In this document: positions 1 to 12,456 of the stretch, in pieces | How the letters are laid out: each line of letters begins with the position of its first letter | Position numbering within the stretch: position 1 is the first letter of the stretch | Source: a bacterium | GTDB taxonomy: Bacteria > Vulcanimicrobiota > Xenobia > Xenobiales > Xenobiaceae | Reading direction: 5' to 3' | NCBI GenBank assembly: GCA_017444165.1 | Contig: JAFSXH010000154.1 | Span: 1-45,125, forward strand | Length of the DNA stretch: 45,125 bases | Notes under the pieces: generated by a model | What the model was told of the DNA's origin: nothing | Database searches by the model: none | Seen by the model: the letters and a program-made list of their open reading frames with translations, nothing else | Program-made: the position numbers and the translations under genes

Positions 1-459
1 AGATTACTACCAATAAGCGTATTGTTCTTTGTCGTCTCAATTATCTTCTTCTGCGGAGGTTGTCAGCAGAGGGGCTTGCACGTTGGTACGGTCAACGCTG
101 AAAAGATTATTAGTGAAGATCCTAAGTATATGGAATTGCGTGTGGTTCTTTCCGATGAGCGTCAAAAGTTGTACTCTCAAATTCCTAAGAATGTAAATTC
201 TATGTCGAACACGCAGAAGAAAGCTCTGCAGGAAAAATTAGCTAAAGATGCTGCCGAGCGTTCCGATAAATTTAATAAGCTTTATCGTGAGAGCATGGCA
301 AAATTACAGGAAGATATAAAATCTCATGCTAGTGAAGTGGCTAAGGATAAGGGTTTAGATATAGTAGTCGTCAACACGATGATGAATTATCCTGTAGTTC
401 TTTACAGCAGTGGAGATAATATAACTTTAGATATTTTGTTAAAGATGGGAAATAATTGA
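1..459 (+). CDS. skp: Skp/OmpH-like periplasmic chaperone; 5' end probably lies outside the window
   Basis: The listed ORF 22..459 starts at TTG, but the frame is open back to nt 1. The sequence ..RLLPISVLFFVVSIIFFCGGC.. looks like the end of a signal or lipobox segment. The product is a ~140-aa Lys/Glu/Gln-rich helical protein. It ends 4 nt before an lpxD-type gene, which is the classic skp-lpxD arrangement. Confidence 0.6.
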   Translation, partial: RLLPISVLFFVVSIIFFCGGCQQRGLHVGTVNAEKIISEDPKYMELRVVLSDERQKLYSQIPKNVNSMSNTQKKALQEKLAKDAAERSDKFNKLYRESMAKLQEDIKSHASEVAKDKGLDIVVVNTMMNYPVVLYSSGDNITLDILLKMGNN

Positions 460-463
460 TCCT

Positions 464-1168
464 ATGGCTAAAAATATTCATGCTACGGCTGTTGTCAGCG
501 ATGATGTTGTTTTGGCGGATGATGTCGTTATTGGAGCTTGCTCTGTCATAGAATCAGGAGTTGAGATTGGCGCAAAGACTGATATTGGGGCTAGAGTGTA
601 CATCGGTCCCAATGTTAAGATTGGTGAAGGTGTAGTTATTTATCCTGGTGCGGTCATTTTAGAGGGAACTGAGATCGGCGATAAAGCCGTTATCCATTCA
701 GAAGTTGTCTTGGGTATGGATGGTTTTGGTTACGTCTTCGATGGTCAGGAACATCGCAAGATTCCTCAAGTAGGCAACGTGGTTATCGGAGCAGGGGCTA
801 CTATTGGAGCTGGTTCTTGTATCGACAGAGCGACTACGGCTTCTACGGTTGTGGGTCAAGGTTCACAGATCGGCAAGATGGTGATGATCGGTCACAATAG
901 TCGTGTAGGCGAAAATACGCTAGTGGGTGATCAAACTGGTATGACTGGCTCTTCCATAGTTGGTAATGATTGTCAAATAGGTTATCAATGCGGAGTCGGT
1001 GTGCGTGTAGAGATGGGAGATGGTTGTGTCCTTCTAGATAGAGGGGCGGCCATGCGTAAGTATCCTGCGGGCCAAGTCTTAGCTGGTTTCCCTGCTCGTC
1101 CAGTAGAAGAAGTGCGTAAGGTTGAAGCGGCTTTGAATCTTCTGCCTAAACTTTTAGAAAAACATTGA
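464..1168 (+). CDS. lpxD: UDP-3-O-acylglucosamine N-acyltransferase (LpxD-type) lacking the N-terminal uridine-binding domain
   Basis: Hexapeptide-repeat beta-helix from residue 1. LpxD-specific GMDGFGY loop, KIPQVGNVVIG, IDRATT, catalytic-His context MIGHNSRVGENTLVG, and a C-terminal helix. Only 234 aa, versus about 340 for canonical LpxD. Confidence 0.75.
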   Translation: MAKNIHATAVVSDDVVLADDVVIGACSVIESGVEIGAKTDIGARVYIGPNVKIGEGVVIYPGAVILEGTEIGDKAVIHSEVVLGMDGFGYVFDGQEHRKIPQVGNVVIGAGATIGAGSCIDRATTASTVVGQGSQIGKMVMIGHNSRVGENTLVGDQTGMTGSSIVGNDCQIGYQCGVGVRVEMGDGCVLLDRGAAMRKYPAGQVLAGFPARPVEEVRKVEAALNLLPKLLEKH

Positions 1169-1188
1169 ACAATGTAGATAATAAATTT

Positions 1189-1223
1189 AACTGGTCGTTG
1201 ATTAGCGGTCAGTTGTTTTTTTT
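1189..1223 (+). terminator. Rho-independent terminator after the short lpxD
   Basis: A 9-bp stem (aactggtcg / cggtcagtt, two G-U pairs) with an 8-nt loop, followed by gtttttttt. Confidence 0.6.
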
Positions 1224-1229
1224 GTAGAT

Positions 1230-3032
1230 GTGTTTATGAAAAGATTATCTTTATTTATTTTTATACTTTGTCTTTTTATAGTCGGTCAGTTTTCTCTAGC
1301 GGCTGAAGTTGTTATGGGTGGAAGGGTTATCTTCGAGATAAAAAATGAGGAGCAAGCTCAGAGGATATCTCAAAGGATAGAATCGCTTTTGCAGAGTGGA
1401 GCTTCACCAGAAAAGATAAAGGTCGTACGTAAAGAGGTCGTCTTAAAAAAATCTGGCGATAAGGACAAAGGCAAGAAGAGTACGGTTTTTAGCATCTATT
1501 GGGGCAAAGATTTAATAGTTGATGTCACTCACGATATGGCTGTCAAAGCGGGTGGTACGGCTGAATCTGTGGCCCATAAGTGGGCAGATACCCTGCGTAG
1601 CGTAGCCGAGATCGGTCTATTTAATATCGACACTGAGAGGATCGTCTGTCCTATAGAAGCTGACAAAGTTATTAACATCAGTGGTCTGAGTACAGCTCCC
1701 TTAAAAGTAGAAGATCCTTCAGGGTTAGTGGAAATAGAGATCAGTGATGACTGTCAGAAAGTATATTTGAAGGCTAAGAGAGTCGGCAAGACTACGCTCA
1801 AGCTGACTCGTGGTATGCTCTCGCGTACCGTCTTTATTTGGGTTAAAGATTGGGCGGGCAAGTTGCCTAAGGTGGTTAATGCTGAAGTTACAGGCGATCC
1901 CGCTATGGCGGGGGCTGTTTCCCAAGCGGTTATGCTCTCTATTATCTCTAATACAGATGTCAAACCTGGCTGTAGTGTCTATTTAGGTGAATTTGATTTT
2001 GCCCCAGTGGCTGTACCTAGTGGTGACAGTATGCGTCTGATGGTTCCCATGGGCATTAATGCTACTGAAGATTACTTCCCTGTAAAGGGTACGGTCAACG
2101 TCTTAATCAATAACGTGCCTATAGAGAAGGTTGAACACAATCTTTTGCTAGTGAGCAATCGCCCCGAAAGGGTAGATAAAGATGGGATTTTGCTCCGCTA
2201 CAGTTTCAAAAAGAATGAACCGACCAGGCTCATGTATTCTCACTTAAATGCTTCTGAAGGTAAGCGGCGCAATTTGTGGGTAAATCTCATTAATTACGAT
2301 GAAGAACCCGTCAAGATTGCTATTGGCAGTACGTACGCTGGTCCTGAACGCAGTGAAATATATGTAGGCCAGACTTCGGCCAAACGTTTTTTAGAAAACT
2401 TATCGGCTAATTCAGGATACATTATAACTTTGGGGGCCAATTCGGCTATTGAGCTGGCTTGTCATGATATGCGCCCTGAAGATTTAGTGAGCGGTTTTAT
2501 CAATTTTCAGATTCTTGAAGGTGTAGGGGCTACGGTTGAAGTGCGCACCGCTCTAGCTCCGTCTAATAACGATGGCAGAGTTATGCCCGATATAGGAGCT
2601 CCCTTTAATCCTTTCAAAATTCATCCTCATGGAGTTTTTGCCCAGCCTTATTTTGAAAATGATGGCGAATTTACTGTAGGCGATGAACCTTTAACTTTCA
2701 TTTATGGAGAGAGTCCTTGGCTGATCGATTTTGAAACTGGTCTGCCCAATACTGGTAATTTTGGAGTTTTGTATAAGTCGCTGGTGGAATTGAAAAATCC
2801 CACGCGTTCAACTCGAGTTGTAGGATTATACTTCACCCCCTTATCTGGCCCTGGTGGAGCTAACTTTTTGATCGGCAATAAGGTTTATCAGGCTGTCTTT
2901 CGCAAAAAAGGCGATGAGGTCTTAGTTGCCAAGATTGAGTTGCCCCCTGAGTCGAGTAATGTTATTGAGATTATTACTTTGCCAGAAGCGACCTCTTGTT
3001 ATCCCGCGCAATATCAATTGAGAGAGTTGTGA
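1230..3032 (+). CDS. Secreted protein of unknown function (about 600 aa), possibly with an Ig-like (Big_2-type) segment
   Basis: Long ORF with a GTG at 1230 and an ATG at 1236. Signal peptide MKRLSLFIFILCLFIVGQFSLAAE. The stretch VEIEISDDCQKVYLKAKRVGKTTLKLTRG resembles bacterial Ig-like domains. The stop lies 1 nt before the lpxC start. I recognise no family for the rest of the protein. Confidence 0.8.
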   Translation: MFMKRLSLFIFILCLFIVGQFSLAAEVVMGGRVIFEIKNEEQAQRISQRIESLLQSGASPEKIKVVRKEVVLKKSGDKDKGKKSTVFSIYWGKDLIVDVTHDMAVKAGGTAESVAHKWADTLRSVAEIGLFNIDTERIVCPIEADKVINISGLSTAPLKVEDPSGLVEIEISDDCQKVYLKAKRVGKTTLKLTRGMLSRTVFIWVKDWAGKLPKVVNAEVTGDPAMAGAVSQAVMLSIISNTDVKPGCSVYLGEFDFAPVAVPSGDSMRLMVPMGINATEDYFPVKGTVNVLINNVPIEKVEHNLLLVSNRPERVDKDGILLRYSFKKNEPTRLMYSHLNASEGKRRNLWVNLINYDEEPVKIAIGSTYAGPERSEIYVGQTSAKRFLENLSANSGYIITLGANSAIELACHDMRPEDLVSGFINFQILEGVGATVEVRTALAPSNNDGRVMPDIGAPFNPFKIHPHGVFAQPYFENDGEFTVGDEPLTFIYGESPWLIDFETGLPNTGNFGVLYKSLVELKNPTRSTRVVGLYFTPLSGPGGANFLIGNKVYQAVFRKKGDEVLVAKIELPPESSNVIEIITLPEATSCYPAQYQLREL

Positions 3033-3033
3033 T

Positions 3034-3864
3034 ATGTGCAGAAAACAGAATACTTTAAATAATAAGATAACCTTTATAGGTGTAGGCATCCACAGTGGCT
3101 GCAGAGCTGAAATGGTTGTTAAACCAGCTTCTGTTGATCACGGTATAGTATTTAAAAGTGCTGGGGAGTTGATCGAGGCATCCTATAAAAATGTCGTCTC
3201 TACCAAAAGATCGACAGTTTTGGGTAAAAATGGAATCCAAGTTTCGACTGTTGAACATTTTATGGCTGCTCTGTGGGCTTGTGAGATCGACAATGCTTTA
3301 ATTGAAATTGATGGGCCTGAGGTTCCTATTTTGGATGGTTCAGCTCTGCCATTTTGTCAAGAATTAAAAAAAGTTGGAGTCGTTTCACAAGATAAAGTCG
3401 CTACTGAAAGTTTTTGTCTGCAAGAACCTATCTTCGTCTCTGAAGGTGAGAGTTTGATCTTGGCTAGACCCGCCTCTAAATTAATTTTGGAGAGCGATGT
3501 AACTTATAAAAGTCCTCAAGTTGGCCACCAAATTTTCTCTTTCTGTGGTACGGGGGAAGAGTTTTGTACAGCTGTTGCTCCAGCCCGCACTTTTGGATTT
3601 TGGGCTGAAGTTAAAGATTTATTGGCTAATAATTTGGGTAAAGGCGGCAATTTAGATAACGCTCTGATCTTTGATCGTCCAGGTTTTAATCCTCAAAGTA
3701 TCTTGCGTTATGACAATGAGCCAGTGCGCCATAAAATGTTGGATCTTGCTGGTGATCTCAATCTTTTGGGAGTTCCAGTTAAGGCTCACATTTTAGCTAT
3801 AAGGGCTGGCCATAAATTGCACGTTGAATTTGTACGCAAAGTTGCCGAGGTGATAAACAGATGA
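3034..3864 (+). CDS. lpxC: UDP-3-O-acyl-N-acetylglucosamine deacetylase
   Basis: Motifs GVGIHSG, TVEHFMAAL, EIDGPEVPILDGSALPF, HKMLDLAGDL and GHKLH. Length 276 aa. Located within the lpx cluster. Confidence 0.95.
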   Translation: MCRKQNTLNNKITFIGVGIHSGCRAEMVVKPASVDHGIVFKSAGELIEASYKNVVSTKRSTVLGKNGIQVSTVEHFMAALWACEIDNALIEIDGPEVPILDGSALPFCQELKKVGVVSQDKVATESFCLQEPIFVSEGESLILARPASKLILESDVTYKSPQVGHQIFSFCGTGEEFCTAVAPARTFGFWAEVKDLLANNLGKGGNLDNALIFDRPGFNPQSILRYDNEPVRHKMLDLAGDLNLLGVPVKAHILAIRAGHKLHVEFVRKVAEVINR

Positions 3865-4229
3865 TCGATATTAAAGAGACTGCCTTTGTTGATAAAGTGG
3901 AAAATTTGGCTTTTCCTGTTGCTGAAGGGTACAAAAATATTACTGTAAATGAGCCGTATTTTGTGGGCCATTTTCCTGGTAATCCCATTATGCCAGGTGT
4001 TTTGCAGTTAGAGGCCTTGGTGGAGTTGGCCTGGTTCTTGTATGATTCTAAAGTGGAAATGGTTAAGGTAGTGCGTTTGAAATTTAGAAGGCCTGTGCGT
4101 CCTGGGGATCGCCTCGATCTCCATGTGGAAGAGACTGAACGTCAGGAAGATGTGGTTAGTGTAGCTGTGCGAGCTTCTGTGGATGGCGAGACTTCTTGTG
4201 AAGGTCTTGTACAATTTAAGCTAATGTAG
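3861..4229 (+). CDS. fabZ: 3-hydroxyacyl-ACP dehydratase FabZ (short N-terminus)
   Basis: NEPYFVGHFPGNPIMPGVLQLEAL hot-dog active-site motif. The ATGA overlap with the lpxC stop indicates translational coupling. Confidence 0.9.
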   Translation: MIDIKETAFVDKVENLAFPVAEGYKNITVNEPYFVGHFPGNPIMPGVLQLEALVELAWFLYDSKVEMVKVVRLKFRRPVRPGDRLDLHVEETERQEDVVSVAVRASVDGETSCEGLVQFKLM

Positions 4230-4281: not shown

Positions 4282-5223
4282 ATGGAGCCAGTACGGGTTG
4301 GGGTTATAGGTGTTGGAAGTATGGGCAAAAACCATGCGCGTGTGTGTGCATCTTTGCCTCAAATGGAACTAGTAGGCCTAGTTGATGTAGATGAGGCTAG
4401 AGTTCGTCCGATAGCGGAAGGTTACAATACCAATTATTATAGTGATTATCGAGAACTTTACGACAAAGTTGATGCCGTAGTGATCGTTTCACCTACCCCG
4501 CTCCATTATGAGATAGCTGCCGATTTTCTCCAACGCGATATACACGTCTTAGTAGAGAAGCCAATAACTGTCGATGTCGACCAGGCAAAAGGTCTGGTGG
4601 AGTTAGCTAAAGATCATCATTTGATCCTACAAGTAGGCCATTTAGAGAGATTTAATCCTGCCGTCATTAAGATGAAGAAGATCTTAGAAGAGCCGATGTT
4701 GATCGAATGTCATCGTCTCTCTGGTCCTACGACTCGAAATTTGGATGTAGGTATAATTTGGGATCTGATGATCCACGATTTTGATATACTTTTGAGCCTT
4801 TTAAAGTCGCCTGTGGCTTACGTACATGCTTTAGGAACGAGTGTTTACTCTCCCTTTGAGGATATTGCTCATGTGCAGATGCGCTTTAAAAACGGAGCCA
4901 TGGCTAGTTTAGTAGCCAGTCGCAATTCAGGTGAACGCAAGCGCAGTTTAAAGATTACCGAAAAGACGGGGCGCGTCTTGATGTTAGATTTTATTGAACA
5001 AAGTTTGACTATTTCTAGTCCTGGCCCCGATGGTCGTCCTTTGGATCCTGTGTCGGTACATATTGATAAAGAAGAACCTTTAGTTTTAGAACTGAAAAAT
5101 TTTGCTGAGTGTGTAGCTTTGCATAAGAAGCCATTAGTTTCTGGAGAAGATGGCAAGAGAGCTTTGGAATTAGCTATGCACGTTTTGAAAAATATGGACA
5201 TGAGAGAGGAGAAGCAGAGATGA
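4282..5223 (+). CDS. Gfo/Idh/MocA-family NAD(P)-dependent oxidoreductase (GnnA-like candidate)
   Basis: N-terminal Rossmann motif VGVIGVGSMGKNHA and the EKP motif (LVEKPITV). Length 313 aa. The stop overlaps the lpxA start (ATGA). Confidence 0.85.
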   Translation: MEPVRVGVIGVGSMGKNHARVCASLPQMELVGLVDVDEARVRPIAEGYNTNYYSDYRELYDKVDAVVIVSPTPLHYEIAADFLQRDIHVLVEKPITVDVDQAKGLVELAKDHHLILQVGHLERFNPAVIKMKKILEEPMLIECHRLSGPTTRNLDVGIIWDLMIHDFDILLSLLKSPVAYVHALGTSVYSPFEDIAHVQMRFKNGAMASLVASRNSGERKRSLKITEKTGRVLMLDFIEQSLTISSPGPDGRPLDPVSVHIDKEEPLVLELKNFAECVALHKKPLVSGEDGKRALELAMHVLKNMDMREEKQR

Positions 5224-6029
5224 TTCATCCTACTGCGGTTGTACATCCTAAGGCTAATATAGGTGAAGGTGTCAATATAGGTCCATTTTCAGTTATAGGT
5301 GAAAACGTAACCATAGGTGAGGGTACTGAGGTTATGTCCTCGGTGATTATTGATGGTTGGACTACTATTGGCAAAAACAACAGGATTTATCATGGGGCGA
5401 GTATAGGTTTAGCTCCTCAGGATTTCAGTTACAAGGGACAGCGGGCCTTTGTGGAGATCGGCGATAACAACGATATTCGTGAATATGTCACTATTCACCG
5501 AGCTGCCAATGAAGATGGTTTAACATATGTTGGCAGTGATAATCTCTTGATGGCTTATGTCCATGTAGCCCACAATTGCCACGTGGGCAATCAGGTCACT
5601 ATCGCCAATTACGCTGGTATGGCTGGACATACTGTAGTGGAAGATCAGGCTGTTTTGGGTGGTTTGGTCGGTATACATCAGCATACGCGCATAGGTAGGT
5701 TATGTATGATTGGTGGCTGTTCTAAGATAAATAAGGACATACCGCCTTTTAGTATAGTTGATGGCAATCCTTGTAGAATCTTCGGTATGAACTTCCGCGG
5801 TATGCGCCGACGCGGTATCGATCAGAAGAGTCGTTTGGCGGTGCAGACTGCTATTACCATTTTGGGCAGTCGCGGCTTGAACATTGATGAAGCCGTAGAG
5901 ACTATTTTGCGCGAGGTGGAGCAGACTCCAGAGGTTGTTCATTTGGTAGAGTTTATTAAAGGTTCTTCGCGTATGGGTATTCTCAATAAGGGCTGTGGTG
6001 TTGGTATTAGGGCTGGAGAGAACAATTAA
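5220..6029 (+). CDS. lpxA: Acyl-ACP--UDP-N-acetylglucosamine O-acyltransferase
   Basis: Aligns by eye along its full length with E. coli LpxA: IHPTAVVHP, VEIGDNN.IRE.VTIHR, VGSDNLLMAY.HVAHNC.VGN, GG...HQ and RRRG. Confidence 0.95.
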   Translation: MIHPTAVVHPKANIGEGVNIGPFSVIGENVTIGEGTEVMSSVIIDGWTTIGKNNRIYHGASIGLAPQDFSYKGQRAFVEIGDNNDIREYVTIHRAANEDGLTYVGSDNLLMAYVHVAHNCHVGNQVTIANYAGMAGHTVVEDQAVLGGLVGIHQHTRIGRLCMIGGCSKINKDIPPFSIVDGNPCRIFGMNFRGMRRRGIDQKSRLAVQTAITILGSRGLNIDEAVETILREVEQTPEVVHLVEFIKGSSRMGILNKGCGVGIRAGENN

Positions 6030-6120: not shown

Positions 6121-8544
6121 ATGGCGGAAGATAAAAAAAAGTTTTTAGTGGCTTTGACGGCTATCGATCCTTCTGCGGATATGCAGGGAGCGGTTTTAGT
6201 TAAGGCGTTGCGCGAGATAAATCCGAATATCGAGTTTGTCGGAATTGGTGGGCCGCAGATGGCCTCGGCAGGGGTAGATTTATGGCTTAAAACGATAAAT
6301 TCTGCTGTCATTGGGCCTGGTGAAGTTATTGTTCATTTGCCCGTTTATATACTCAATTATTGGAAGATCCGCAATAAACTTTTAGAAGTTCGTCCTGATC
6401 TTACGATCCTCATAGATTCACCTGCTGTCAATATGCGCTTTGCGGGTGTCTTGCGCCGCCATGGTTTAAATAGTGTTTATTATTTCCCACCATCAGCCTG
6501 GAGTAAGAGTGAAAAGCGGTTGCGCGACATCTTTGGACGCACAGATCGCGTTATCTGTGTTTTTGAGAGAAATGCTGAGAGTTATCGATGTTTAGGGATG
6601 GATGTTGATTATTGGGGCCACCCTATGAACGATATGCCTGAATTAAATTATACCCCTGAAGAGGCAAGAAAGAGGCTAGGGGTTGAGGGAGAGATTTTGG
6701 CTCTGCTTCCTGGCAGTCGTCAAGCGGAGATCGATAATTTGTTGCCTGTATTTTTGAAGACTGTGGAAATTTTGCACGCCGAGAGGCCGTCTTTGCAAGT
6801 TTTGATCCCTTGTGCTACTGAAGATCTGTCGGAAAAGATCCGCAGTTTAGTTCCTCAAAGTTGTGATTATATACGTTTAGTGGCGGGACAATCACATTGG
6901 GTGATGTTAGCTAGTCGAGCCGCACTTATGAGTTCGGGGACGGCTAGTTTAGAAGCTATGATGTTCAATTTGCCTATGGTTTTGTGTTATCGTTTTGGTT
7001 TGTTTAACGCCATTTTAGGAAAGTTTCTTTTGGCTACAGGTATATTAAAGGTCGATCATATTGGAGCTCCCAGTTTAATCTTAGATCGTCGCATTACTCC
7101 AGAATTTATTCAGGAGGAAGTTACACCAGAAAATCTAGTTCCCGCTGTACGCCAATATTTAGATGACACACCAGAGAGAAAGCAGATTTTGCAAGATCTG
7201 ACTTGGGCGCGTCAGAGTATGGGAGAGCCTGGAACGGTCAAAAAGATCGCCGCTTCTGTTTATAAACTTGTAGAGAAGTTTCATCAAGAACGTGAAAGTA
7301 AAAATATCGATGTGGTAATTACCTCCAATTCTCCAGGTGAAGTTTCTACTTGGGTAAAGCATACAGTTACAGCTTTAAAAGAGAGGTGTACTTCTGACCG
7401 TCTGCGTGTAGTTGTGGCTTTAGTTCCTTGTCCCTATGCTTCGGGGGCTGAGGAAGATGTGGCCAAGAGTATATCTGGAGTCGATATAGTTTTGACTCCC
7501 AGAGAGACGGTAAAGTTGGCTTTTCTGGGAAAATTGGAAAAGTATACACCTAACCATTTTGGGGTAGTTGTCTTTTTGGGCGGTGATCTTGCTCATGCGG
7601 CCATTCTGTCGTGTCGCTTGCATTACAAATCTATTGCTTATGCAGAACGCCACAATATATTGTTGCCGTTCTTTACACGCCTCTGTTCTGGTAACTTAGA
7701 TCTGCAGAACAGTTTAGTAAAAGATGGATATAAAAATGTAGACTACGTGGGCAACCTCTGTGTAGATGGTGTCAACGAGTGTGTCAAAACTTTTAAACAT
7801 GAGAGATCTGGCAAATGTGTTGGTATCTTTCCAGGATCGCGTTTTTTGCACGTTAAGGTATCTTTAGGTGTATTTTTGCGAGTAGCGGCCAGAATTAAGA
7901 GCTTAATGCCCCAGACGCGTTTTCTTATCTCTGTCTCTCCTTTTGTCTCTCAATTTAAGTTGAAGTCTGCGCTTTTGCGTCCCTTCTCGATGGGGTTGCC
8001 GACAGCAAAAGGTTATATAAAGGATAAAGATACTTTGCAAGTTGAGTGTGAAGATGAGCTCGAAGGATCGGCAGGTCGCTCCTTTGAGGTTGAGATATTT
8101 TGGGGTGAACCTTACAGAGCTATGGCTGAGATAGATATGGCTCTGACTATACCAGGTACGAATACAGGCGAGTTAGCTTGTTGTGGTAAGCCGATGGTGG
8201 TGGGGCTATCTAGTGCCGCTCCCTATCCACGCGGTGGTTTAGGTGGTTTGTTGGATAAGTTGCCAATAATGGAGAGCATTAAAAAATACCTGCGTCACAA
8301 GTCATACTTGCGTCAGGGATTTGCCGCTCAACCGAATCGAGTAGCTCAAAAGATGGTTATACCAGAAATTGTTGTCGGTCGGGATAGTTTAGTTTTGGCA
8401 GAACCAATTTTAGAATGGTTGAAAGATGAAGATAAGTGTCTGGCTAAAGGACGAGAGTTAAGTGAACTTATGGGCAATCTCAACGAGGCGGGGAGTAATA
8501 TTGCTAAAACGATATTGAATGTTTTGAATTTGAATGATGAGTAA
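6121..8544 (+). CDS. lpxB: Lipid-A-disaccharide synthase fused to a second LpxB-like (GT19-type) domain
   Basis: Residues 1 to ~385 look like canonical LpxB (SADMQGA.L...L, IDSPAVN, YYFPPSAW, LLPGSRQAEI, SGTASLEAM). Residues ~395-807 form a second domain with SNSPGEVSTW, IFPGSRFLHV and IPGTNTGELA, resembling LpxB-related proteins. Total length is 807 aa versus about 380 for LpxB. Confidence 0.85.
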   Translation: MAEDKKKFLVALTAIDPSADMQGAVLVKALREINPNIEFVGIGGPQMASAGVDLWLKTINSAVIGPGEVIVHLPVYILNYWKIRNKLLEVRPDLTILIDSPAVNMRFAGVLRRHGLNSVYYFPPSAWSKSEKRLRDIFGRTDRVICVFERNAESYRCLGMDVDYWGHPMNDMPELNYTPEEARKRLGVEGEILALLPGSRQAEIDNLLPVFLKTVEILHAERPSLQVLIPCATEDLSEKIRSLVPQSCDYIRLVAGQSHWVMLASRAALMSSGTASLEAMMFNLPMVLCYRFGLFNAILGKFLLATGILKVDHIGAPSLILDRRITPEFIQEEVTPENLVPAVRQYLDDTPERKQILQDLTWARQSMGEPGTVKKIAASVYKLVEKFHQERESKNIDVVITSNSPGEVSTWVKHTVTALKERCTSDRLRVVVALVPCPYASGAEEDVAKSISGVDIVLTPRETVKLAFLGKLEKYTPNHFGVVVFLGGDLAHAAILSCRLHYKSIAYAERHNILLPFFTRLCSGNLDLQNSLVKDGYKNVDYVGNLCVDGVNECVKTFKHERSGKCVGIFPGSRFLHVKVSLGVFLRVAARIKSLMPQTRFLISVSPFVSQFKLKSALLRPFSMGLPTAKGYIKDKDTLQVECEDELEGSAGRSFEVEIFWGEPYRAMAEIDMALTIPGTNTGELACCGKPMVVGLSSAAPYPRGGLGGLLDKLPIMESIKKYLRHKSYLRQGFAAQPNRVAQKMVIPEIVVGRDSLVLAEPILEWLKDEDKCLAKGRELSELMGNLNEAGSNIAKTILNVLNLNDE

Positions 8545-9121
8545 TAAACGAGAAATTTTTTTCCGCTACAGGGGAGCGATTATGGCTGTAGTGGCTTTAG
8601 TCGTCTTAATAGTGGCTTCTCCCAGCTTAAAGTCTTACTTAGCAGGTTTAATGTTGGGAATATTGGGCGAGTTGATCCGCGTTTGGGCCATTGGTTGGAC
8701 GGGCGAACACACTCGTGCTCAATCTCTGCGCGCACCGTTTTTAGTTACACAAGGTCCTTACAGTTTGGTACGCAACCCTCTGTATTTGGGCAATATTTTA
8801 AATTATTGCGGAGTGTTGCTGGCCGCAATTGGTTCTATGTCTGCGCTGGGAGCTGCTCTGCTTACTTTAAGCAGTGGTTTAATTATTTATGTGGTTTATT
8901 CTGGTTGTATCGCAGTGGAGGAGCAGTTTTTGCAAGAGCATTTTGGCGAGGCTTTCACGGCTTACAAAGATTCTGTGCCTCGTTTATGGCCCCATTGGCG
9001 AGATGTTATCAGCGGCGGGCAGTATGAATTTGCCTGGGAGCGAGTTAAATTTGAAGTCACGACCATATTTTGGTGGTTAGTGAGTTGGTCTGTTTTGCTT
9101 TACAAACTTTTGATGATCTGA
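8534..9121 (+). CDS. ICMT/PEMT-family membrane methyltransferase (LmtA-like candidate)
   Basis: Multi-TM protein of 195 aa. Motifs GPYSLVRNPLYLGNIL (the RHPxYxG-type motif) and VEEQFLQEHFGEAFTAYKDSVPR (the EE..L...FG..Y..Y motif). The start overlaps the end of lpxB. Confidence 0.75.
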   Translation: MMSNKREIFFRYRGAIMAVVALVVLIVASPSLKSYLAGLMLGILGELIRVWAIGWTGEHTRAQSLRAPFLVTQGPYSLVRNPLYLGNILNYCGVLLAAIGSMSALGAALLTLSSGLIIYVVYSGCIAVEEQFLQEHFGEAFTAYKDSVPRLWPHWRDVISGGQYEFAWERVKFEVTTIFWWLVSWSVLLYKLLMI

Positions 9122-10224
9122 GCCATACGTTCGGCTCCACCTGGAGGCCCCAGACGTTCCTTGCCAATATTAGCGCGGCGCAATCTATCTTCAGGATTGT
9201 TTATTAAGTTTGCTAAGGCTTCGATTATCTTTTCATCGTTATCTGGAGTAACAATGAGGGCTTCGCCTAAGAGTCCTTTTTGGCGGGTGCGATACCAGCG
9301 GAGATTTTGCGGATCTGCATCGTAGGCTATTACGGGTATACCCCAACCTGCCGCCTGCTCGTGAGCTGTGCCTGCCAAACCCAAAGCGACTTGGCTGTAT
9401 TTGAATACGTCAGCAATATGGCCTTTGATGAAGAATATACGCAGATTATCTTTAGTGTTATTTAATTGGAACCAGTCAGGATAATTCAGAGGTTTTAAAT
9501 TATCTGATCCCACTAATTTTTCTATTTCTATTGAGTGAGCTACGGCTACTAGGGCGCAGATCGGTCGTTCTAACTTTTGGGCAAATTTTTCGGAAAGCTG
9601 GAGAAGGCGGGGCATAACTTCATAAGTAGCTTGACGACTGCCTGGAAAGAGAGCTAGACCGATCTCGCCTGTTTTGAGCGTGAAGTTAATGTTTTGAGGT
9701 ATGAGGCCATCCATCATGGCGTTACCTACCCAAAGGGCTTTTACACCTTTTTGGCGCAAATCCTGAGCTGTGAGCTCATCACGAACTAGAGAGCGTACTT
9801 TTCCAAAACGCAAAATTAGTGATTCTAGATAAGAATAGGCGTGGTGATAATTAGATTTAGCCGTACCAATAAAAATGATAGGTCTAATTCCTGAAATAAT
9901 GCTGAGTACAACTGGCCAAAGATCGCCCACCGCCACAATTTTTGTATATTCATTTCTATTAGAACGCAACCAAAAGATCTGTTTTAAAATTAGTCCCAAG
10001 AGTCCATTTTGTAAATCTTGCCAAAAATTATTTAAGTTCTCTTTTATGAGACCACCACTAGGCATAACTTGACGGGGGCCGCAAAGTGGGGCTAGATCTC
10101 TGTAGGCCTCACCTTGGCCTACTAGTGGCATAACTTCGAGATCTACATCTTGTAAGTTACGAATTATCTGAGCGGCGATGGCATCTTCTCCCGCACCATT
10201 AGAAATAAATAAAATTTTGGACAT
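9100..10224 (-). CDS. LpxB-related glycosyltransferase (lipid-A-disaccharide synthase-related protein)
   Basis: ILFISNGAGEDAIA N-terminus and LFPGSRQATYEV (the same PGSR motif as LpxB). Length 374 aa. It resembles the stand-alone LpxB-related family I know from cyanobacteria. Confidence 0.7.
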   Translation of the reverse strand: MSKILFISNGAGEDAIAAQIIRNLQDVDLEVMPLVGQGEAYRDLAPLCGPRQVMPSGGLIKENLNNFWQDLQNGLLGLILKQIFWLRSNRNEYTKIVAVGDLWPVVLSIISGIRPIIFIGTAKSNYHHAYSYLESLILRFGKVRSLVRDELTAQDLRQKGVKALWVGNAMMDGLIPQNINFTLKTGEIGLALFPGSRQATYEVMPRLLQLSEKFAQKLERPICALVAVAHSIEIEKLVGSDNLKPLNYPDWFQLNNTKDNLRIFFIKGHIADVFKYSQVALGLAGTAHEQAAGWGIPVIAYDADPQNLRWYRTRQKGLLGEALIVTPDNDEKIIEALANLINNPEDRLRRANIGKERLGPPGGAERMAQIIKSL

Positions 10225-10230
10225 AATTTT

Positions 10231-10983
10231 CTAAACCTTAATTAATCGATGGGTGCTCCTCTCTGGATTATCAAAATCATAATCTAAAAGACCCACATAC
10301 TGACCATAACAACCAGTTTGTGTGATATATACCCCTTCTTTTTGGATAGGTTCTGATAAAGCTGTGTGGCTGTGTCCCCCTAAGATCCAAGTTCCTTTAG
10401 GCAGGCGAGGGGCTAACTCTAGATCTCGCTCTAAACCTAAATGGCTTAGGATCAGTATATTTTTGTTTTGGATAAATATCTTTTGTGCTAGTTTAGCTGT
10501 AGTTTCTATTGGATCGAAAAAACGAAATTTAAATATTTTCTCCCAAAAACAGTTATGACGATACTGTACGGGAGTAACTCCGATCAGCGTTAAATTTTCC
10601 ACGTTGATCGCCGCTGTCCAGCGTTTACGGATCTTGTTCTCTCGCCAATCTTGATAAGCGCGATCCACCAAGTTGGTACTGTCATCATTAGGGCATTCAT
10701 TCAGATCTGAGAGATTGCTACAGAGGAGGGGAAAATTTCTCTCTTCTGAGCGTATGTCCAGGACGCGTCGTTGGTAATTAAATTCGCGATTGCCCATAGC
10801 CATAGCTCGGCAACGGAGCTTATTCATTTTGTGTAAAATTGGCTCAGAACGGCGATAAATTGTGTTAGATCCTGCTAGAGCATCTCCACTGTCAACATAA
10901 ATATCTTTATCGGTTATGCTCCTAGTTAGCCAGAGAAGAGCCTCGTTGCAATTGTGCATATCATTAGTGTGATAGATCTGCAT
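10231..10983 (-). CDS. Calcineurin-like metallophosphoesterase, LpxH-sized, with a GNRE motif (candidate UDP-2,3-diacylglucosamine hydrolase)
   Basis: Motifs D8-x-H10 (HTNDMHN), G33-D34 (DSGDALAG), G64-N65-R66-E67 (MGNREFNY), LSH and GGHSH. Length 250 aa. It lies 6 nt upstream of the LpxB-related gene. Confidence 0.75.
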   Translation of the reverse strand: MQIYHTNDMHNCNEALLWLTRSITDKDIYVDSGDALAGSNTIYRRSEPILHKMNKLRCRAMAMGNREFNYQRRVLDIRSEERNFPLLCSNLSDLNECPNDDSTNLVDRAYQDWRENKIRKRWTAAINVENLTLIGVTPVQYRHNCFWEKIFKFRFFDPIETTAKLAQKIFIQNKNILILSHLGLERDLELAPRLPKGTWILGGHSHTALSEPIQKEGVYITQTGCYGQYVGLLDYDFDNPERSTHRLIKV

Positions 10984-11496: not shown

Positions 11497-12456
11497 CTAT
11501 TCAGCCTTTTTTCTTATCTTTTGCCAATACTTTAAGGGAAGAGAACGCTGGGCAATCTTGCGCATATAAGCTTTGTGCATGATCGCGGGTTCCCCCGACC
11601 AGGTATTTTGACCAGCGGGAATATCCCCTTCCACAAGACTGCGGGCCGCTACTGTCGCAAAATCGCCAACTTTGGCCTCAGGTTGGAGCAAATTCTGTCC
11701 TGCCACTATGGATAGATTACCTGTTTGCGAATTCTCCCGCAGACAGGCTTGAGAGATCACTATAGCCAGAGGAGCAATATTTACGCCCTCTTTTATATTT
11801 ATGAGGTTATCTAAACGAGCTCCCGTACCTATTTGACAAGTATCGATCTGACAGCGTGCCCCGATCTCTACGTTGTCTCCTATTGTTGTCTTCGGTCCTA
11901 TATTAGTTAGAGCTCCTATTAAACATTTACGTCCTATTTGACAATCTTTTTTGATGTGTGCTCCAGCCAGAAGGCGGGTCTCCGCTCCTATGTGGCTGTT
12001 AGAGCCTACTTGAGCGTGGGCGTGTATTTCACAATGATCGCCAATATGAGCATCCTTCTCTATAATGGCATAAGGGCCGATGTAAGCGGTAGGTGAGATT
12101 GCAGCTGTAGGATCGACTATCGCCCGAGGATGAATCTGGGCTTCATAACGACGGCGGGGATAGAAGAGATCTAACAGTTGAGCAAAGGCCACGCGGGGAT
12201 TATCAACTGAGATCGTGGGAAATGTTTGTTCTATCTCTGTCAATTTATTAGAGATGACTATGGCAACAAAACCCAATTCTTTAGCTTTTTGATAAACTTC
12301 CAAATTGTCGGCAAAGGTTATAGTGTTGCTCAAATTGTGTCCGCAATTGACGGCATCTATACCAGTAATATCAGAGATCTCTAAATCATTAAACTCTTCG
12401 TTGAGGAGTTTACCAGAGATGTATTTGGCTAAGTCTTGTAATCTTTTTACCACCAT
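11497..12456 (-). CDS. LpxD paralog with the LpxD N-terminal domain and hexapeptide helix but a non-canonical active site
   Basis: The N-terminus aligns by eye with the E. coli LpxD uridine-binding domain (RLQDLAKYI, ITGID, ITFA, VDNPRVAFAQLLDLF). Hexapeptide repeats follow. There is no GFGY loop, and NIKEGVNIA sits where LpxD has QIAHNVVIG. Confidence 0.7.
   Translation of the reverse strand: MVVKRLQDLAKYISGKLLNEEFNDLEISDITGIDAVNCGHNLSNTITFADNLEVYQKAKELGFVAIVISNKLTEIEQTFPTISVDNPRVAFAQLLDLFYPRRRYEAQIHPRAIVDPTAAISPTAYIGPYAIIEKDAHIGDHCEIHAHAQVGSNSHIGAETRLLAGAHIKKDCQIGRKCLIGALTNIGPKTTIGDNVEIGARCQIDTCQIGTGARLDNLINIKEGVNIAPLAIVISQACLRENSQTGNLSIVAGQNLLQPEAKVGDFATVAARSLVEGDIPAGQNTWSGEPAIMHKAYMRKIAQRSLPLKYWQKIRKKAE

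Follow-up and report, generated by a model that had tools for sequence, protein, structure and literature searches.

How would an LpxD acyltransferase recognize its uridine diphosphate (UDP)-linked acceptor if the domain that binds uridine were missing? The question is raised by a gene near the beginning of the 45,125-nucleotide stretch presented above (the window; contig JAFSXH010000154.1, assembly GCA_017444165.1, from a bacterium of the family Xenobiaceae). This gene, here called S (464..1168, plus strand), occupies the skp-lpxD position of a lipopolysaccharide (LPS) gene cluster and encodes an LpxD that has no N-terminal uridine-binding domain (UBD). A longer LpxD paralog, here called L (11497..12456, minus strand), retains a UBD and is separated from S by 10.3 kb, both genes lying within the cluster. 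The two paralogs show complementary degeneration of the two sides of the active site that LpxD forms between subunits. UDP is most likely recognized in trans by the UBD of L, and we put the probability that S and L build a mixed trimer with one composite active site at roughly two in three.

The short gene S and its occurrence in the class

The features of S are listed below. E. coli numbering equals S numbering plus 95, and S His144 is E. coli H239.

464..1168, plus strand: S subunit, a short LpxD of 234 amino acids with a left-handed beta-helix and a C-terminal helix, no UBD
722..769, plus strand: long loop GFGY...KIPQ of S (residues 87-102; GFGY at nt 722-733), retained in S and deleted in L
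872..877, plus strand: Gly137-Lys138 of S at the position of E. coli D232-N233, the Asp-Asn pair being lost
893..898, plus strand: His144-Asn145 of S, corresponding to E. coli H239 (catalytic base) and N240
947..949, plus strand: Gly162 of S, corresponding to E. coli G257 (oxyanion-hole amide)

A reading made from the sequence alone (the sequence-only reading) had described a 234-amino-acid open reading frame starting 4 nucleotides after the skp stop codon, and the positions agree with it. The skp/OmpH frame ends with TGA at 457-459, the spacer TCCT occupies 460-463, and the ATG of S, whose product begins MAKNIHATAVV, stands at 464. The N-terminus cannot be extended upstream because a TAA codon at 440-442 lies in frame, 7 codons before the ATG; the open frame amounts to 241 amino acids, with no start among the extra codons. 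The UBD is therefore missing by architecture, and the Pfam profile of this domain (PF04613) gave no match in S.

On the LpxD profile NF002060, S matched positions 101-331 of 345 with 217.9 bits, above the cut-off of 207, and on TIGR01853 it matched positions 93-324 of 325 with 211.6 bits, under the equivalog cut-off of 242.5. The second-best family was LpxA (NF003657, 89.7 bits), and the Pfam Hexapep match had an E value of 1e-27. Residues 97-319 of E. coli LpxD (3eh0) were aligned with S with one 1-residue gap (E = 5e-34). In the AlphaFold2 (AF2) monomer model of S, residues 214-233 form a C-terminal helix, and the first 23 matches of the model in the Protein Data Bank (PDB), as found by Foldseek, were all LpxD. 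In the C-terminal extension, which serves recognition of the acyl carrier protein (ACP), the Leu and the Pro of the E. coli 322-323 motif are kept in 32/39 and 23/39 S proteins, respectively. LpxD is thus the closest family by sequence and by fold, and not another hexapeptide acyltransferase, the outcome that the sequence-only reading had named as contrary to its own. The view of S as an LpxD-type catalytic core truncated by architecture is supported.

The "hydrocarbon ruler" position (E. coli M290, Chlamydia trachomatis G298) is residue 195 of S (nt 1046-1048). The window's protein has Ala there, and 39/39 S proteins have one of Gly, Ala and Thr; by analogy with the C. trachomatis LpxD, this suggests a deep pocket for a long N-linked acyl chain.

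The window's genome is a fragmented metagenome-assembled genome (MAG) of 309 contigs, 87% complete, and S might for that reason be an artefact, namely a normal lpxD shortened by a frameshift, a wrongly called start or a break in the assembly. However, the gene lies in the interior of a 45-kb contig, just behind the end of skp and the in-frame stop, and its ratio of nonsynonymous to synonymous substitution rates (dN/dS) is 0.12-0.24. The short form is also widespread. The sample comprised 121 genomes of the window's phylum searched with TIGR01853, 44 in the window's class and 77 in other classes; the class is Candidatus (Ca.) Xenobia, as judged by the names of database matches, and the NCBI taxonomy places both Ca. 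Xenobium and Ca. Bruticola in class Ca. Xenobia, phylum Vulcanimicrobiota. A canonical LpxD above the TIGR01853 cut-off was found in 77/77 genomes outside the class versus 0/44 inside. Most of the matches outside the class span profile positions 1-324, and a few are truncated at a contig end or a stop. Inside the class, the best LpxD match was the short form (profile positions ~90-324) in 43/44 genomes, with one partial match (G106); the TIGR01853 search gave no S-level match in G046 (90% complete).

The nearest database relatives of S fall into 18 clusters of 237-253 amino acids with 47-64% identity. Bacterium UBP9_UBA11836, Ca. Bruticola and Ca. Xenobium are among the source names, and some members lie on contigs of 0.23-1.4 Mb. 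The next database matches were full-length LpxDs of ~340-350 amino acids with no more than 45% identity (41-45%). A hidden Markov model (HMM) of the UBD, built from 30 canonical LpxDs of the same phylum and run in six frames on the window's S and 20 orthologous loci, found a domain at E <= 1 in 0/21 loci. The upstream stop, the database relatives, the 43/44 genomes and the UBD-free loci together refute the artefact, to which we give next to no chance. The sequence-only reading had held the truncation to be architectural and not a frameshift, and had proposed a look at related genomes; the in-frame stop and the class-wide short form, with no full-length gene in the class, confirm its view.

Four further proteins were considered as UBD-less LpxDs (P0090, P0287, P0297 and P0340) and were rejected. 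They keep the Asp-Asn pair, and P0090, P0297 and P0340 start with Val; all four are probably fragments of canonical genes.

The long paralog L and the reciprocal losses

A reciprocal paralog at 11497-12456 had been announced by the sequence-only reading without a strand. The gene exists, it is on the minus strand, and the losses are indeed reciprocal. Its features are as follows.

11497..12456, minus strand: L subunit, an LpxD paralog of 319 amino acids with a UBD, a loop-less beta-helix and a C-terminal helix
12157..12456, minus strand: UBD of L, residues 1-100 (PF04613, 25.8 bits, below the cut-off of 30.8)
11806..11811, minus strand: Asp216-Asn217 of L, corresponding to E. coli D232-N233 and invariant in L
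11788..11790, minus strand: Glu223 of L at the catalytic His position

The LpxD profile matches L in two pieces, positions 6-174 and 197-314, and neither S nor L reaches the LpxD equivalog cut-off. The AF2 model of L has a predicted local distance difference test score (pLDDT) of 96.5 and shows an alpha/beta N-terminal domain, a perfectly regular loop-less beta-helix and a long C-terminal helix. The first 25 Foldseek PDB matches of this model were all LpxD, with a query TM-score (TMq) of ~0.8, and the root mean square deviation to 2iu8_A was 3.6 Å. Compared with the C. trachomatis and E. coli LpxDs, L lacks the GFGY...KIPQ loop and the shorter loop after the Asp-Arg motif at E. coli D216-R217. 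The phylum UBD HMM matched the window's L at an E value of 4e-17 and 40/40 L loci at E values from 4e-27 to 5e-6, and a PF04613 search of the window's genome found no UBD besides that of L. Within this domain, Phe48 (E. coli F41) is encoded at nt 12313-12315 of the minus strand, and Asp34 corresponds to C. trachomatis E34. The Phe at the F41 position is kept in 33/40 L proteins, and an acidic residue at the ribose-binding E34 position in 37/40.

L was found at E <= 1e-28 in 41/44 class genomes, the three misses being 61-65% complete. In most of these genomes one contig carries both genes, with 12-32 kb between L and S.

The active-site positions were compared in a MAFFT alignment of 39 S proteins, 40 L proteins and 30 canonical LpxDs of the same phylum. 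Counts of the E. coli residue were as follows.

E. coli H239: canonical 30/30, S 39/39, L 0/40
E. coli G257: canonical 30/30, S 39/39, L 0/40
E. coli G182 (loop): canonical 30/30, S 39/39, L 0/40
E. coli Q197 (loop): canonical 29/30, S 39/39, L 0/40
E. coli D216: canonical 30/30, S 39/39, L 11/40
E. coli R217: canonical 30/30, S 39/39, L 7/40
E. coli D232: canonical 30/30, S 0/39 (Gly in 38, Ala in 1), L 40/40
E. coli N233: canonical 30/30, S 0/39, L 40/40
E. coli G228: canonical 28/30, S 5/39, L 39/40

The loop residue F183 is kept in 35/39 S proteins, and L is gapped across the long loop in 39-40 of 40. At the catalytic His position, L carries Pro in 12 proteins, Glu in 9, Ala in 4, Asp, Arg, Lys and Ser in 3 each, and others in the rest. 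The catalytic region of S had been called intact in the sequence-only reading. This holds for the GFGY loop, for His144 and for the oxyanion Gly, but not for D232 and N233, which are lost in every S protein.

Conservation was also compared by face, without a choice of single residues, with the beta-helix cut into 29 six-residue units and the strand spacing taken from the L model. The S minus L information content along the beta-helix showed a period of 3. On the Asp face (the D232 side) the mean difference was -0.50 and L was more conserved in 9/10 units, on the His face (loops, H239, G257) it was +0.92 and S was more conserved in 9/10 units, and the third face was about even, with a mean of +0.16. 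Canonical LpxDs conserve both active-site faces. None of 100000 shuffles of the face labels (0/100000) reached this contrast. When S and L were taken from the same 19 genomes, the face means were -0.53, +0.77 and +0.08, and 1/100000 shuffles reached the contrast.

Since L has the full three-domain architecture of an LpxD, and the cluster contains a GnnA-like dehydrogenase, so that substrates may be unusual, the roles could in principle be reversed: L would be the real LpxD, with non-canonical chemistry, and S a different hexapeptide acyltransferase, acting, for example, on another sugar nucleotide or on the 3-amino group of a precursor of the GlcN3N type. We regard this as very improbable. L has no His, oxyanion Gly or loops, and the residue at its base position is not conserved. 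On the side of S stand its 217.9 bits on NF002060 versus 89.7 for LpxA, its 41-45% identity to full-length LpxDs and its top 23 fold matches. A canonical LpxA is also present, at 5220-6029 (342.7 bits).

Both S and L are under purifying selection. The pairwise dN/dS of L (Nei-Gojobori) was 0.04-0.14 in genus g2, where 18/21 pairs were computable, and 0.17-0.35 in g4/g5. Five g8 genomes were compared for both genes, with a range of 0.11-0.35 in L and 0.12-0.24 in S. The ratios are rough, as dS is above 1 in many pairs. In the phylogenetic tree, S forms one clade and L another, with support of 100 each, on an unresolved backbone. A tree joining S and L was not rejected by the approximately unbiased (AU) test (p-AU 0.58), its log-likelihood (lnL) being 2.27 higher, and long branches may attract each other in it. 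It is compatible with one duplication in the class ancestor and is not proof of it.

One active site from two proteins

The distribution of residues can be set beside the canonical enzyme, in which one site is formed between two subunits. In the parts available of a review of LpxD structures, the C. trachomatis LpxD is described as binding uridine by the UBD of chain B (F43, Y49, E32, E34, N46), and D240 (E. coli D232), the residue that binds the donor acyl chain at its 3-OH, is supplied by chain B too (PMC6286764). Chain A contributes H247 (E. coli H239, the base), Q248 and H284 (E. coli H276), the neighbouring subunit extends its loop of helix repeat 5 into the site, and G257 supplies the oxyanion hole (PMC6286764). 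For E. coli, the same parts of the source report that F41A raised the acceptor Km 29-fold, that H239A lowered kcat almost 1000-fold and that mutation of Y47 had little effect (PMC6286764).

In such a site, one subunit gives the UBD and Asp232, and its neighbour the loops, His239, Gly257 and His276. S keeps only the His side and L only the UBD/Asp side, and the S-L interface would rebuild one complete site, which makes a mixed trimer the simplest account. L, with its UBD, D232 and N233, would hold the acceptor UDP and the 3-OH of the incoming acyl chain, and S, with its loops, H239, N240, G257 and H276 (or Arg), would do the chemistry. Because S lacks the UBD, D232 and N233, and L lacks the loops, H239 and G257, only the S-L interface would be complete. 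The S-S, L-L and reverse L-S interfaces would each fall short of something essential and be dead, so that a trimer of either S2L or SL2 composition would have one active site. The anatomy of the two proteins, their reciprocal residues, their co-occurrence and the purifying selection on both were observed, and S and L were never seen apart in complete genomes; from these we infer the physical assembly, the stoichiometry and the activity of the S/L trimer.

Several observations weigh against the mixed trimer. The chain assignments used above come from a review of structures of other organisms and not from coordinates. The AF2 model of S has a pLDDT of only 74.9 overall, is weak in residues 85-210 and falls below 50 at residues 131-140. 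H276, which L has lost, is His in 19/39 S proteins and Arg in 15/39, including the window's protein. In the UBD of L, the F41 position is Met or Leu in 7/40 proteins, and the Tyr at Y47 is absent in 40/40. The related genomes are not independent of each other, and counts of the form k of n represent one or a few ancestral events. Loss of D232 is also not confined to UBD-less proteins. When a profile of S was searched against 1.84 billion representative proteins and the best 150 were classified, 133 had Asp-Asn at 232/233 and 10 were of the S type (Gly232, no N-terminal domain), but 3/150 were UBD-bearing full-length LpxDs with Gly-Asn (P0257, P0358, P0359). Finally, LpxA is a beta-helix acyltransferase that binds UDP-GlcNAc without a UBD, and S might likewise work alone.

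The last two points belong to a second explanation, by which S is a self-sufficient, UBD-less homotrimeric LpxD that, like LpxA, reads the nucleotide with its beta-helix and C-terminal helix. L would then be a separate non-catalytic homotrimer, a pseudoenzyme whose ligand is a UDP-sugar or lipid A precursor and whose task is to regulate the pathway or act as its scaffold. S does retain both loops, its base and its oxyanion hole, and most genera still have the helix on the ACP side. LpxA structures rank under LpxD in the fold searches, and S and L lie in different transcription units. Nevertheless, D232 and N233 are lost in 39/39 S proteins and the whole Asp face is relaxed, and L keeps that face and little else. 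In an L trimer on its own, the conserved face of each subunit would meet the unconstrained face of the next. The S of one genus, g7, has neither a UBD nor a C-terminal helix, and S and L are never parted in complete genomes. This main rival leaves unexplained why S dropped D232, N233 and one entire face while L preserves that very face. We consider S acting alone unlikely, at about one-third the weight of the mixed trimer at most.

Going one step beyond the mixed trimer, and with slightly less confidence, we think it probable that Ca. Xenobia has an obligate heterotrimeric LpxD that arose from a duplicated lpxD by complementary degeneration on the two sides of the site. One paralog would have been reduced to a bare catalytic beta-helix; its first loss would have been the Phe that stacks on uracil and its second the UBD, with the ACP-side helix following in one genus. 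The other would have become a substrate-holding pseudoenzyme. Two S-like proteins with Gly232 (P0236 and P0241) still have a UBD-like domain at the N-terminus, in which Leu occupies the F41 position. In family f2 of the class, only a UBD vestige of ~35 residues is present, and in the window's S nothing is left. These S-like proteins and the f2 vestige look like graded stages of UBD decay in the S lineage. The proteins and loci of intermediate appearance are P0236/P0382, P0241, P0235 and locus L084. A search of genome contigs for loci related to P0241, aimed at a possible L partner, gave nothing beyond canonical LpxDs from other phyla, none above 41% identity.

In genus g7 (loci L089, L093, L094, L095 and L097), S ends 6-10 residues past the conserved Pro (E. 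coli P305), just after Pro-Ala-Arg (S 210-212), so that the C-terminal helix is missing in addition to the UBD. These five genomes also have a shorter L tail, which keeps a shortened helix. The tail lengths of S and L are correlated across 19 genomes (Spearman 0.55, p 0.014), but this is essentially one g7 event and carries little weight.

The arrangement can be compared with four known systems. Relative to the canonical homotrimeric LpxD (E. coli 3EH0/4IHF-H, C. trachomatis 2IU8), S shares the loops, H239, N240 and G257, and likewise sits in the skp-lpxD position of the lpx cluster, and L shares all three domains. In contrast to the canonical enzyme, no single polypeptide here has the full site, S being without the UBD and D232/N233 and L without both loops, H239, G257 and H276; a working enzyme would need to be a heterotrimer, and it would have a single site where the homotrimer has three. 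LpxA resembles S as a beta-helix acyltransferase of the same pathway without a UBD, but it has a larger and different C-terminal helical domain (Pfam Acetyltransf_11) that is missing from S. Francisella and Leptospira also have two lpxD-family genes per genome. Their LpxD1 and LpxD2 are both full-length and active, differing in acyl-chain preference or temperature regulation, whereas here neither paralog is complete. In the parts available of a paper on plant mitochondrial complex I, the gamma-CA/CAL heterotrimer is described as having degenerate paralogs that leave one potentially active inter-subunit site (PMC7447434). This too is a left-handed beta-helix trimer made from paralogs, as the S/L trimer would be on the evidence of its sequences. 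It differs in being a zinc carbonic anhydrase, eukaryotic and bound to complex I, and its losses do not form a clean reciprocal split of site sides plus an accessory domain.

In a literature search to which subscription journals were mostly outside, no heteromeric or UBD-less LpxD was found described, and the LpxD of Eremiobacterota was not found discussed. Among the matches for LpxD with heterotrimer, as far as the retrieved text goes, the term refers to the SUF iron-sulfur cluster system in PMC13595139, and LpxD appears only as a pathway step in PMC13721041.

The LPS cluster and the lipid A pathway

An LPS cluster occupies the first 18 kb of the window. On the plus strand, skp, S and a conserved hypothetical gene for 600 amino acids are followed by lpxC, a fabZ-like gene, a GnnA-like dehydrogenase gene, lpxA, lpxB and a PEMT/ICMT-like gene. 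The minus strand carries genes for a TPR protein, an unknown 220-amino-acid protein, PmbA/TldD, L, a 169-amino-acid membrane protein, a metallophosphoesterase and an LpxB-related protein. After this minus-strand block, lptC, lptB and lptF/G lie on the plus strand. The features other than S and L are as follows.

22..459, plus strand: skp/OmpH-like chaperone (Pfam OmpH PF03938, E 5e-8), its frame open to the window start
1188..1225, plus strand: terminator-like hairpin with a 12-pair stem and a T8 run, just past the S stop (consensus scan)
3034-3864, plus strand: lpxC
3861-4229, plus strand: fabZ-like gene
4282-5223, plus strand: GnnA-like UDP-GlcNAc 3-dehydrogenase (GFO/IDH/MocA oxidoreductase; 267.6 bits on the archaeal UDP-GlcNAc 3-dehydrogenase model, below the cut-off of 450)
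5220-6029, plus strand: lpxA
6121-8544, plus strand: lpxB, 807 amino acids, with the Pfam LpxB domain on residues 11-355 only
9100-10224, minus strand: LpxB-related protein (TIGR03492, 272 bits)
10231-10983, minus strand: calcineurin-like metallophosphoesterase, 250 amino acids
10986-11495, minus strand: predicted membrane protein of 169 amino acids, no family, 1 nt past the L stop

If the hairpin behind S is real, skp and S would be transcribed apart from lpxC-fabZ-lpxA-lpxB; a search of the region found 3 terminator-like sites versus 2.7 expected from shuffles. The 600-amino-acid protein (1230..3032, plus strand) lies between S and lpxC, has a signal-peptide-like N-terminus and belongs to no family. 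Its matches in the ESM Atlas were only "hypothetical protein" clusters, mostly labelled Armatimonadota or Vulcanimicrobiota. The C-terminal ~450 amino acids of the lpxB product were likewise assigned to no family. The 169-amino-acid membrane protein and the metallophosphoesterase recur downstream of L in 10 other L loci (L041-L050), and the metallophosphoesterase may be a UDP-2,3-diacylglucosamine hydrolase similar to LpxG or LpxH.

Given the GnnA-like gene, the lipid A backbone may contain a 2,3-diamino sugar. LpxK (PF02606) was found in 0/44 class genomes and gave 1 marginal match in the 121-genome phylum sample. Its loss was considered as a correlate of the LpxD split and rejected, LpxK being missing phylum-wide. 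The N-terminal domain of WaaA (PF04413) was not found in the window's genome at its 87% completeness, and among the control genomes Synechococcus was also without a match. This points to a cyanobacteria-like lipid A without the 4'-phosphate or Kdo.

In one Ca. Bruticola MAG, S and L are both labelled "DapH/DapD/GlmU-related". A natural split of LpxD, if real, would correct this annotation, and pathway reconstructions could score the class as being without LpxD because neither protein reaches the equivalog cut-off. LpxD, an antibiotic target, is treated as a homotrimer with three identical sites. A mixed S/L trimer, if true, would give the Raetz pathway its first heteromeric enzyme and would directly reveal the residues that act in trans between subunits. 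It would be a textbook case of subfunctionalization at the level of half active sites, with intermediate stages alive in related lineages, and thus a natural experiment in which a duplicated oligomeric enzyme became an obligate heteromer through complementary loss by graded intermediates. It would also add to the evidence for a non-standard lipid A pathway in this little-known diderm phylum.

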